7,910 nt of DNA, from the IMG/VR virus record IMGVR_UViG_2663763009_000009, positions 1 to 7,910 of that record. One strand, given 5' to 3'. The stretch comes from a virus. Taxonomy: Duplodnaviria > Heunggongvirae > Uroviricota > Caudoviricetes. Below, one piece after another: positions 1,472-1,830 of the stretch; position 1 is the first letter of the stretch, and each line of letters opens with the position of its first letter. A program made the translations under genes and the position numbers. The notes under the pieces are model-generated. The model was given only the letters and a program-made list of their open reading frames with translations. It did not search any database and was not told the origin of the DNA.

Positions 1472-1677
1472 AGACATGTCCTTTCGAATATTTTGATTTA
1501 CCCCTTTTGAGAGGGTGACCGGGCGCTCAAAACCGTCGAAAGTCGGCGGGCGTATTTCCATTGCTGGTATTGTATTAGCCGCACACCCGGTCATAAACCA
1601 AGAATTCTGGACACAAAAAAACCACATGGCTATCGGGTGTGGATACCGCTTTCGAGGTGTTTTGAGCACCGCGGGGA

Positions 1678-1706
1678 AATGTAAACTGCAAACCTGAAAC
1701 TGTCAA
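1678..1706 (-). promoter_or_regulatory. Candidate sigma70 promoter upstream of the ORF6N gene, -35 embedded in an inverted repeat
   Basis: Minus strand: TTGACA (-35, complement of 1701-1706), a 17-nt spacer, TACATT (-10, complement of 1678-1683). The -35 lies inside the loop of an inverted repeat AACCTGA (1691-1697) / TCAGGTT (1712-1718). Confidence 0.35.
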
Positions 1707-1830
1707 CACCGTCAGGTTCCAATCATCGGGTGGTGAGACGCACAGGGTTGGAACTACCGGGAAACCGACCGGCGAGCTTTTCAGCTCCCCCATGCGCCCC
1801 ACCATAATTCAGATGTGCGCGTGCATACGA

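Follow-up and report, generated by a model that had tools for sequence, protein, structure and literature searches.

Results

Two Antisense-RNA Cassettes between the Q and ORF6N Genes

The DNA analyzed here (the window, 7,910 nt) comprises positions 1 to 7,910 of the IMG/VR virus record IMGVR_UViG_2663763009_000009 (Caudoviricetes). The minus strand of the window reads as the late-regulatory end of a lambdoid prophage, in which the gene for a Q-type antiterminator is followed by that for an ORF6N-domain, antirepressor-like protein (Table 1). The 480 nt between the Q stop codon (1952) and the ORF6N ATG (1471..1469) are non-coding, and 363 nt of these lie 3′ of the terminator of a small RNA (sRNA) of the IsrK type. 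Coordinates of elements in this gap refer to the minus strand, in the numbering of the whole window. A scan of the window with Rfam covariance models, taking the curated gathering scores as thresholds, gave four full-length minus-strand matches in the gap, all above the gathering score: isrK, c4-a1b1, C4, and sRNA-Xcc1 (hereafter Xcc1). By its sequence elements, the gap is two antisense-RNA control cassettes in tandem, cassette A of the IsrK/C4 type and cassette B built around Xcc1. We propose that Xcc1 probably acts as the c4 RNA of phage P1 does, blocking translation of the downstream antirepressor gene. The promoter, inverted repeat, and hairpin plus T-run that an initial annotation of the region 1472–1830 had read as a leader operated by a protein all lie between C4 and Xcc1; the two RNAs (71 and 77.4 bits, respectively) and their target sites were missed in that annotation.

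Table 1. Features of the Locus, in Minus-Strand Gene Order and Window Numbering
Feature	Coordinates	Strand	Details
DnaB-like helicase gene, then small open reading frame		minus	start of the minus-strand gene order
RusA gene	2699..2328	minus	
Q antiterminator gene	2359..1952	minus	Pfam Phage_antitermQ 2.7e-52
Cassette A	1947..~1697	minus	IsrK/C4 type: promoter, IsrK and terminator, C4 RNA, one surviving C4 target word
IsrK/C4 promoter	1918..1947	minus	TTGACC-18-TATATT; 10/12; directly after Q gene
c4-a1b1	1924..1872	minus	Rfam RF03163, 50.1 bits
IsrK-type small RNA	1835..1911	minus	Rfam RF01394, 77.5 bits (gathering 50), model 1-77 of 77
C4-type antisense RNA	1726..1809	minus	Rfam RF01695, 71 bits (gathering 45)
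Downstream C4 target word b2	1716..1722	minus	UUGGAAC; 245 nt from ORF6N start
Inverted repeat AACCTGA-n14-TCAGGTT	1691..1718		arms 1718..1712 and 1697..1691; -35 hexamer inside
Cassette B	1706..1472	minus	promoter, ~58-nt leader with b1 and a1, hairpin and U7, sRNA-Xcc1, b2 and a2
Cassette B promoter	1678..1706	minus	-35 TTGACA 1706..1701, 17-nt spacer, -10 TACATT 1683..1678; 10/12
Leader hairpin GGUG-CUCAAAA-CACC	1656..1670	minus	loop = b1, GCUCAAAAC 1667..1659
Leader target site a1	1649..1655	minus	UCGAAAG; complementary to Xcc1 loop CUUUCGA 1542..1536
Leader hairpin and T-run	1615..1642	minus	CCACA 1642..1638, 11-nt loop, TGTGG 1626..1622, T7 1621..1615
sRNA-Xcc1 family RNA	1509..1592	minus	Rfam RF02221, 77.4 bits (gathering 53), model 1-87 of 87
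Hairpin CCCU-CUCAAAA-GGGG just 3′ of Xcc1	1501..1515	minus	loop region = b2 (CUCAAAA 1511..1505)
Target site a2	1487..1481	minus	UCGAAAG; overlaps Shine-Dalgarno AAAGGA; region 1479..1487
ORF6N-domain antirepressor-like gene	908..1471	minus	187 aa; Pfam ORF6N 9e-21; PHROG anti-repressor family 4.4e-85
Terminator 3′ of ORF6N gene	832..811	minus	
Four tRNA genes in a row	718..408	minus	Met-CAT 718..642, Arg-TCT 640..564, Thr-TGT 561..486, Gly-TCC 482..408

BLAST divides the gap into two homology blocks, A (~1934..1697) and B (~1670..1488), and their joint (1697..1670) is the site of the cassette B promoter. Block A (isrK promoter, IsrK, C4, and C4 target word) is present in 830 of 5426 complete E. 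coli genomes and in many Shiga-toxin (Stx) phages, and block B in 152 of the 5426 genomes as well as in other contexts. The two are found in tandem in only five of these genomes, at ~80% identity, and in the IMG/VR contigs L026, which matches the window over the stretch compared, and L005, a different tandem variant with the order isrK, C4, Xcc1, ORF6N, isrJ. Among the 5426 genomes none carries the Xcc1 cassette of the window at >90% identity, whereas block A reaches 98%. The window may come from another enterobacterium or from an uncommon prophage. Each cassette is also found without the other before a gene. In E. coli OkiPb01711 and phage PA2, block A is present alone, and the ATG that starts an ORF6N or antirepressor gene lies ~24 nt after it. 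Phage TL-2011c has isrK and C4 followed by a Rha gene, then block B, which brings its own promoter, and a further gene; cassette B stands alone there.

Xcc1 Has Covarying Target Sites on Both Sides

Xcc1 folds into a closing stem, two hairpins, a single-stranded joint, and a 3′ CACCC tail. It carries two recognition words, a′ (CUUUCGA, 1542..1536) in the loop of hairpin 2 and b′ (GUUUUGAGC, 1533..1525) in the joint, each with complements on both sides of the RNA: a′ pairs with UCGAAAG in the leader (a1, 1655..1649) and again before the gene (a2, 1487..1481), and b′ pairs with GCUCAAAAC in the leader (b1, 1667..1659) and with CUCAAAA immediately 3′ of Xcc1 (b2, 1511..1505). A partial second b2 copy, UCAAAA, lies at 1496..1491, and the b2 arrangement is repeated in relatives. 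Site a2, which overlaps the Shine-Dalgarno (SD) sequence AAAGGA, ends 9 nt before the ATG at 1471. Covarying complements in cis on both sides and a downstream site that overlaps the ribosome-binding site, two features expected of C4/CI-type control in cis, are both found for Xcc1.

The covariation was established by scanning IMG/VR with the Xcc1 core word and keeping the 78 non-redundant loci that have the Xcc1 closing stem; 19 of 20 sampled loci also pass the gathering score of RF02221. At 48 of the 78 loci, the complement of an Xcc1 7-mer occurs in the upstream leader and again in the downstream 5′UTR, compared with 5.2% of non-cognate pairings, in which an Xcc1 is set against the flanks of another locus. 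The a′ word is hypervariable, with 41 words in 50 loci, each with complements on both sides, and b′ has 23 variants in 53 loci, the commonest being UUUUGAG or UUUCGA. Among six tandem loci a′, a1, and a2 switch together (CUUUCGA/UCGAAAG versus CUACUGA/UCAGUAG), with the promoter hexamers constant.

The order of elements recurs across loci: a promoter, a hairpin with b1 in its loop, a1, CGG, a hairpin with a CCCGnnAG loop and a run of T5-8, then a spacer, Xcc1, the b2 hairpin, a2 fused to an SD-like word, and the ATG. In the 52 loci with both a1 and a2 located, on which the geometry counts are based, the SD-like word abuts a2 in 44 and the ATG follows a2 by 8-11 nt in 39. Scanning of chromosome contigs gave many chance matches to the A+T-rich pattern, and only matches with the Xcc1 closing stem were used; the architecture is present in 32 of 58 such matches, compared with site matches in 6 of 57 chance hits. 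Chromosomes with the cassette architecture include those of Neisseria, Pasteurellaceae, Erwinia, Tolumonas, Desulfovibrionaceae, Azospirillum, and Cohaesibacter, among others.

Tandem pairs of Xcc1 copies that differ in their loop words occur in two IMG/VR loci, L081 (1183-1266 and 1432-1515) and L098. The first copy in L098 is followed by a terminator-like hairpin and T-run and then by the promoter and leader of the next cassette. In both C4 (5′ end 1809) and Xcc1 (5′ end 1592) the closing stem is preceded by a conserved UAUG and followed by a CACCC-type tail, which hints at a shared processing signal.

The Cassette B Promoter and Leader

The near-consensus TTGACA-17-TACATT of the initial annotation is present as stated, with a predicted start near 1672-1670. 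The match by itself is not significant, since 3 promoter-like sites occur in 700-2400 compared with 2.0 +/- 1.5 in shuffles. Both hexamers are unchanged in five related tandem loci, in which the spacer and flanks vary; the sixth, L005, has TTGACA-18-TATAGT at the equivalent place with an unrelated spacer, and the stand-alone cassette of TL-2011c has TTGACA-18-TATATT at an identical offset. A sigma-70-like site of at least 10/12 lies within 73 nt upstream in 26 of 52 Xcc1 cassettes, compared with 0.5% of random windows of the same contigs, and the distance from the end of its -10 hexamer to a1 is mostly 22-29 nt, the window having 22 nt. Near-consensus hexamers, a spacing of 16-18 nt, and a position kept in relatives, as expected of a sigma-70 promoter, are all seen, and the cassette B promoter is probably real. 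For the promoter and the leader hairpin alike, it is comparative conservation, not the single-sequence score, that is convincing.

The CCACA-n11-TGTGG hairpin and T-run had also been described, with coordinates (about 1613-1640) that deviate by 2 nt. Of the dinucleotide shuffles of 1472-1830, 0.2% contain a 5-bp hairpin with T6 behind it. A T-run is present in 48 of the 52 cassettes, starting 22-29 nt after a1 in 47 and farther downstream in the 48th, and per-sequence stem finding located a stem of at least 4 bp abutting the T-run in 45 of the 47. These stems comprise 21 different complementary arm pairs (e.g. CCGC/GCGG, CCAC/GUGG, UCAC/GUGA, CCAAC/GUUGG), and in the tandem relatives the arms change together (CCACA/UGUGG versus CCGCG/UGCGG). 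Pair counts for the hairpin in the alignment exceed all 500 shuffles on three of five measures; counting in the MAFFT alignment was dropped for per-sequence stem finding, since only 67% of cells pair, MAFFT shifting the arms between subtypes. The hairpin of the window has U7 and a covarying stem, yet it is only 5 bp long, has an 11-nt loop (beginning CCCGAUAG), and is missed by a standard terminator scan. It is a putative weak intrinsic terminator or attenuator, which would end a leader RNA of ~58 nt. The cassette B leader matches no Rfam family at E values up to 1.

The CGG that follows a1 (1648..1646) is at least 90% conserved in an alignment of 46 T-run-bearing leaders. In a thermodynamic model of 45 leaders, blocking the conserved CGG raised the probability of the terminator stem from 0.29 to 0.81, whereas control blocks gave 0.26. 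The model favors antisense-promoted termination for most loci, and we infer from it that the CGG may compete with the terminator stem in most of them. A specific pairing of the GCGG after a1 with the 5′ arm of the terminator was rejected for want of covariation, as changes in the arm (CCAC, UCAC, CCAAC) are compensated in the 3′ arm and not in the GCGG. A CCCG(U/A)nAG at the start of the terminator loop is strongly conserved across phages of great diversity (the window and 45 related loci). Pairing of this loop (CCCGnnAG) with the 5′ strand of the Xcc1 closing stem, for which the window offers an 8-nt match (CACACCCG/CGGGUGUG), was also rejected, cognate helices being 4.74 nt compared with 4.66 nt for non-cognate ones in 47 loci.

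Cassette A Retains an Incomplete Set of C4 Targets

The IsrK/C4 promoter has TTGAC and CCGGGGCTATATTCC unchanged in the six tandem loci, with a variable spacer, and by position is the equivalent of the late promoter pR′. IsrK comprises two hairpins with C4 target sites and an intrinsic terminator (stem 1856..1840, T6), with a predicted fold of -24.7 kcal/mol; this site, also picked up by the terminator scan, is the tR′ of the initial annotation, and it is terminator-like as stated there. The Rfam C4 model that detects the window RNA also matches P1 c4 at its annotated position, P4 CI, and the N15 CA RNA. The b′ word of C4 is its single-stranded joint, GUUCCAA (1754..1748), which pairs with the IsrK loop 2 word UUGGAAC (1886..1880) and with a second copy downstream (1722..1716). 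C4 b′ and its targets covary: phage PA2 has UUCGAA three times, and the upstream target changes along with b′ in Z869, RM8082, and L005. The second C4 word, a′, has no clear covariation among the tandem loci, the IsrK loop 1 being invariant and the C4 loop variable.

The downstream C4 word of the window lies too far 5′ of the ATG (Table 1) to mask the ribosome site, so that the downstream target of C4 in the window does not cover the ribosome-binding site. Where OkiPb01711 and PA2 keep the a2/SD part of the C4 system, the window has the Xcc1 cassette in its place. In Z869, RMDEC465, and RM8082 the match between the downstream UUGGAAC and the adjacent C4 is lost, indicating that this word moves as part of the promoter block and that its match to C4 is not maintained. 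The C4 word and the IsrK loop word, read at alignment columns 75-85, 210-220, and 245-255, still match in these loci (L127 for Z869, L129 for RMDEC465, and L128 for RM8082; GUGCUAA/UUAGCAC, ACGCCAA/UUGGCGU); the downstream copy being still UUGGAAC, recombination has swapped the C4 allele without its downstream target. The C4 of the window may act only on transcripts from the IsrK promoter, or in trans on other prophages.

The ORF6N Gene and Its Surroundings

RefSeq annotates the EC12 homologue of the ORF6N gene from the equivalent ATG. The proteins encoded downstream of Xcc1 cassettes have antirepressor-type N-terminal domains, with 34 matches among 36 proteins (Bro-N 9, KilA-N 7, Rha 5, AntA 5, P22_AR_N 4, and ORF6N 4). 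By these matches and those of the window protein (Table 1), the ORF6N protein is a putative antirepressor.

Beyond the gap, tRNA-Met occupies an equivalent position in relatives. Two insertion sequence (IS)-like units lie beside the DnaB-like gene, an IS3-type pair at 4460-5733 on the minus strand (HTH_Tnp_1, then rve) and an IS21-type pair at 5882-7851 on the plus strand (an rve/Mu-transposase-C protein, then IstB), and both may have cut the prophage replication region. An isrJ RNA (101.7 bits) lies directly after the ORF6N gene in L005 (662-736, minus strand), as in Gifsy-1; the Rfam scan of the window gave no isrJ match. In E. coli OkiPb01711 (L002, 3629-3884) STnc100 (144.5 bits) lies 3′ of a truncated ORF6N gene, and the anti-GcvB RNA AgvB (96.5 bits) lies in the same region on the opposite strand. 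Three CRISPR-DR4 repeat matches occur ~1 kb from the Xcc1 cassette in the viral contig L027 (2202-2349).

Discussion

Proposed Mechanism

In the mechanism that we propose, a′ in the hairpin-2 loop and b′ in the joint of Xcc1 would pair with a2 and b2 on the mRNA, blocking ribosome binding and keeping the antirepressor off in the lysogen. The a1 and b1 copies would let Xcc1 act on the leader as well, in either of two ways that are not exclusive of each other: Xcc1 on the leader could favor termination at the hairpin and U7, in the manner of P4 CI, or the short terminated leader could titrate Xcc1 as a decoy, the role that IsrK has at its own locus in Gifsy-1. In the presence of Q, polymerase from the upstream isrK promoter should read through both terminators. 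This expectation rests on established lambda biology: the constitutive promoter pR′, after the Q gene, makes a short, terminated 6S RNA, and Q-modified polymerase reads through tR′. The IsrK promoter and terminator fill the role of pR′-6S-tR′ by position. Unlike in lambda, the short RNA here carries antisense target sites and would be a regulator in its own right.

Several observations weigh against this mechanism. Published work treats sRNA-Xcc1 as trans-acting and virulence-linked. In the exact-word test 26 of the 78 loci lack a three-way a site. The Rfam C4 model gives no match on Xcc1 (1592..1509) at E values up to 1, so Xcc1 resembles C4 in architecture and logic rather than by demonstrated homology; it would work like C4 and is not a member of RF01695. 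C4 itself is without its ribosome-site target in the window. The stem of the terminator is of low stability (-3.2 kcal/mol in the window, -3.7 kcal/mol on average), the terminator hairpin does not appear in the minimum-energy fold of the window leader, and this leader folds no better than shuffles (z +0.96). Moreover, the terminator stems of the window and L005 are predicted to form unaided (0.79 and 0.71), so an antisense-dependent switch is not predicted for the window copy, whose hairpin may simply be a constitutive, leaky attenuator. For the EC12 allele, which has CCGCG arms, the model does predict a switch dependent on Xcc1.

Alternative Explanations

The foremost alternative is the plain leader of the initial annotation, in which a protein repressor would bind the inverted repeat over the -35 and the hairpin would be a simple attenuator, with no RNA regulator involved. 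We consider this unlikely. The repeat is present, with the -35 within it, and the promoter and terminator are conserved, as this reading would have it. Also in its favor are one compensatory change in the repeat, from C-G in the window to A-T in EC12, Z869, and RMDEC465, a short palindrome of different sequence (TGATT-GACAT-AATCA) over the -35 of L005, and the precedent of P1, in which Oc4, the operator for C1, and the -35 of the c4-icd-ant promoter overlap (P1 record). However, 31% of dinucleotide shuffles of 1472-1830 contain an inverted repeat with perfect 7-bp arms and a loop of 3-20 nt, and the repeat alone is therefore not significant. It has a mismatch in RM8082, is replaced by unrelated sequence in L005, and is absent from stand-alone Xcc1 cassettes elsewhere, which keep the promoter. 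It spans the joint between the C4 and Xcc1 modules, which recombine, and as RNA it would fold into a hairpin (-12.4 kcal/mol, z -1.8) that buries the leftover C4 target word b2. A protein-operated leader also takes no account of the two RNAs detected at Rfam level, nor of the fact that their sites covary three ways.

The repeat was considered as a LexA box and rejected. The LexA (SOS) operator consensus is CTGT-N8-ACAG with an A+T-rich center; the window has CTGA-CGGTGTTG-ACAG, and its CTG-N10-CAG becomes ATG-N10-CAG in three of four E. coli relatives (ATGA-...-ACAG in EC12, Z869, and RMDEC465, with CTGA kept in RM8082), leaving no conserved box. The inverted repeat could be an RNA hairpin or a protein site, and the operator claim is unsupported rather than refuted. 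The initial annotation is partly supported: its promoter and attenuator are supported, and its account of regulated, possibly attenuated, Q-independent expression is a fair summary, given a promoter in 26 of 52 cassettes (0.5% in random windows) and stems in 45 of 47.

That Xcc1 acts only in trans, on host or other genes, and stands before ORF6N incidentally is a still less probable explanation. Studies of Xanthomonas and Xylella describe trans-acting, virulence-linked sRNAs, sometimes arrayed without an adjacent gene, and the extra Xcc1 copies in L098 and L081, the one in L098 having its own terminator-like hairpin and T-run, can be read in the same way. Exclusive trans action leaves unexplained that the loop word has its complements in cis on both sides at the cognate loci far above the non-cognate rate (48 of 78 versus 5.2%), that the downstream copy abuts the SD, and that the genes downstream are almost always of the antirepressor type. 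Action in trans on related phages is compatible with control in cis and is no alternative to it.

We give very little weight to the reading that 1472-1830 has no function, with the gene expressed only by Q-dependent read-through and the elements due to chance. The gap directly follows the Q gene, the number of promoter-like sites is near that expected, and the repeat is not significant alone; against this, the promoter position, the compensatory terminator arms, and the target sites are kept in dozens of unrelated phage contexts, and two Rfam families exceed their gathering thresholds.

A 76-aa open reading frame (1805..1575, minus strand) starts within C4 with two AUGs 12 nt apart, like orf45 of Gifsy-1, and runs on into Xcc1 because the stop codon of its relatives is lost; the ORF6N frame is open upstream through all of Xcc1 to 1669 (908-1669). 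That the gap is protein-coding, as an orf45 counterpart or as an N-terminal extension of ORF6N from 1669, is the least credible of the alternatives: both frames are present and translation of the twin-AUG orf45 was shown in Gifsy-1, but the 76-aa frame stops after 36 codons in OkiPb01711 and 45 in Gifsy-1, where the orf45 nucleotide sequence and not the amino-acid sequence was found to be conserved (PMC4825925), the extension frame is closed by a UAG inside a2 in EC12 and TL-2011c and by early stops in distant loci, and the SD spacing suits the ATG at 1471.

Comparison with Known Antisense-RNA Systems

The C4 and IsrK families, their equivalence to P4 CI and seqA, and the curated Xcc1 family are already known. 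The arrangement proposed here resembles the immI region of P1 and P7 (c4, icd, ant), in which an antisense RNA is encoded upstream of an antirepressor gene in the same orientation. In P1, as here, two short recognition words, in a loop and in the joint, have target pairs upstream (a1, b1) and downstream (a2, b2); the P1 record annotates a1, b1, c4, a2, and b2 before icd-ant, and the downstream pair covers the ribosome site. The c4 fold, with its closing stem, two hairpins, single-stranded joint, and 3′ ACCC-type tail, is also shared, and cassette A contains a c4-family member. In contrast to P1 c4, Xcc1 is undetected by the C4 model; its cassette has a terminator between a1 and the RNA and a b-a order of sites (a-b in P1), and no icd-like coupling frame is conserved in Xcc1 cassettes.

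In P4 and N15, a processed antisense RNA pairs upstream and downstream on its own transcript, leading to premature termination (PMC3632133), and IsrK and C4 are the counterparts of P4 seqA and CI (PMC3632133). The CI RNA of the P4 immunity region (seqA, CI, seqC) and the CA RNA of N15 anti-immunity both fall in Rfam C4, and their upstream leaders are matched by the isrK model. The position of the Xcc1-cassette terminator right after a1, together with the CGG-blocking model, fits the P4/N15 logic. Unlike in P4, termination control here is a property of the thermodynamic model, and is not predicted for the window copy; furthermore, the genes controlled in P4 are replication genes, not an antirepressor gene.

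The isrK-orf45-anrP locus of Gifsy-1 (PMC4825925) is similar to the window in having a Q-type gene, the isrK promoter, IsrK with its terminator, a C4-like region (orf45/STnc1160), and an antirepressor gene in this order. In Gifsy-1 the downstream antirepressor gene is expressed from the isrK promoter; its mRNA arises when transcription passes the IsrK terminator, and the short IsrK acts on the long RNA (Hershko-Shalev et al., 2016; PMC4825925). The possibility that Gifsy-1 already holds an Xcc1 cassette was discarded, since its orf45 stop codon overlaps the anrP start (PMC4825925), whereas the window has an Xcc1 cassette of ~225 nt between the corresponding elements. Insertion of this cassette between C4 and the gene accounts for the loss of the ribosome-site target of C4.

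By its covariance-model score, the window RNA belongs to the same family as sRNA-Xcc1 of Xanthomonas campestris (RF02221) and the sXF RNAs of Xylella. In contrast to the phage setting here, the Xanthomonas and Xylella RNAs have been described as integron- or island-encoded, trans-acting, and virulence-linked, and one Xylella genome has been reported to contain five Xcc1 RNAs in a row. In the searchable literature, outside which the founding paper lies, so that a prior description is possible, no cis targets, leader, terminator, or antirepressor link of Xcc1 were found. The sole link is a comment that, in APSE phages, a copy of Xcc1 lies upstream of an ORF6N gene.

Implications

On balance, and with modest confidence, we favor the view that the sRNA-Xcc1 family is a second widespread class of phage immunity antisense RNAs, used in the way of P1 c4 and P4 CI without detectable homology to them. 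If so, the hypervariable loop word of each Xcc1 (41 variants) would be a specificity label gating the adjacent antirepressor-type gene. The leader, terminated and made from its own promoter, would carry decoy targets, and the ratio of leader to Xcc1 could set an on/off switch. Orphan or arrayed Xcc1 copies, as in Xylella, L098, and L081, would then be extra specificities silencing the antirepressors of other phages. Reports of Xcc1 RNAs as host-directed virulence sRNAs would also be seen differently, in that the neighboring gene deserves testing first. A curated RNA family without a described mechanism in the papers searched gains a concrete proposed one, testable at the nucleotide level, and the hypervariable loop words with their matched targets would provide a naturally occurring collection of orthogonal RNA switches.

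It is antirepressors that determine whether a prophage remains silent, a decision that controls toxin release in Shiga-toxin phages. The Xcc1 cassette adjoins antirepressor-type genes in Stx phages such as TL-2011c, and is present in the 152 complete E. coli genomes noted above. In the window, two terminators and two antisense RNAs precede the antirepressor-like gene and would form a lock in layers, of a kind not found in the Gifsy-1 model locus.

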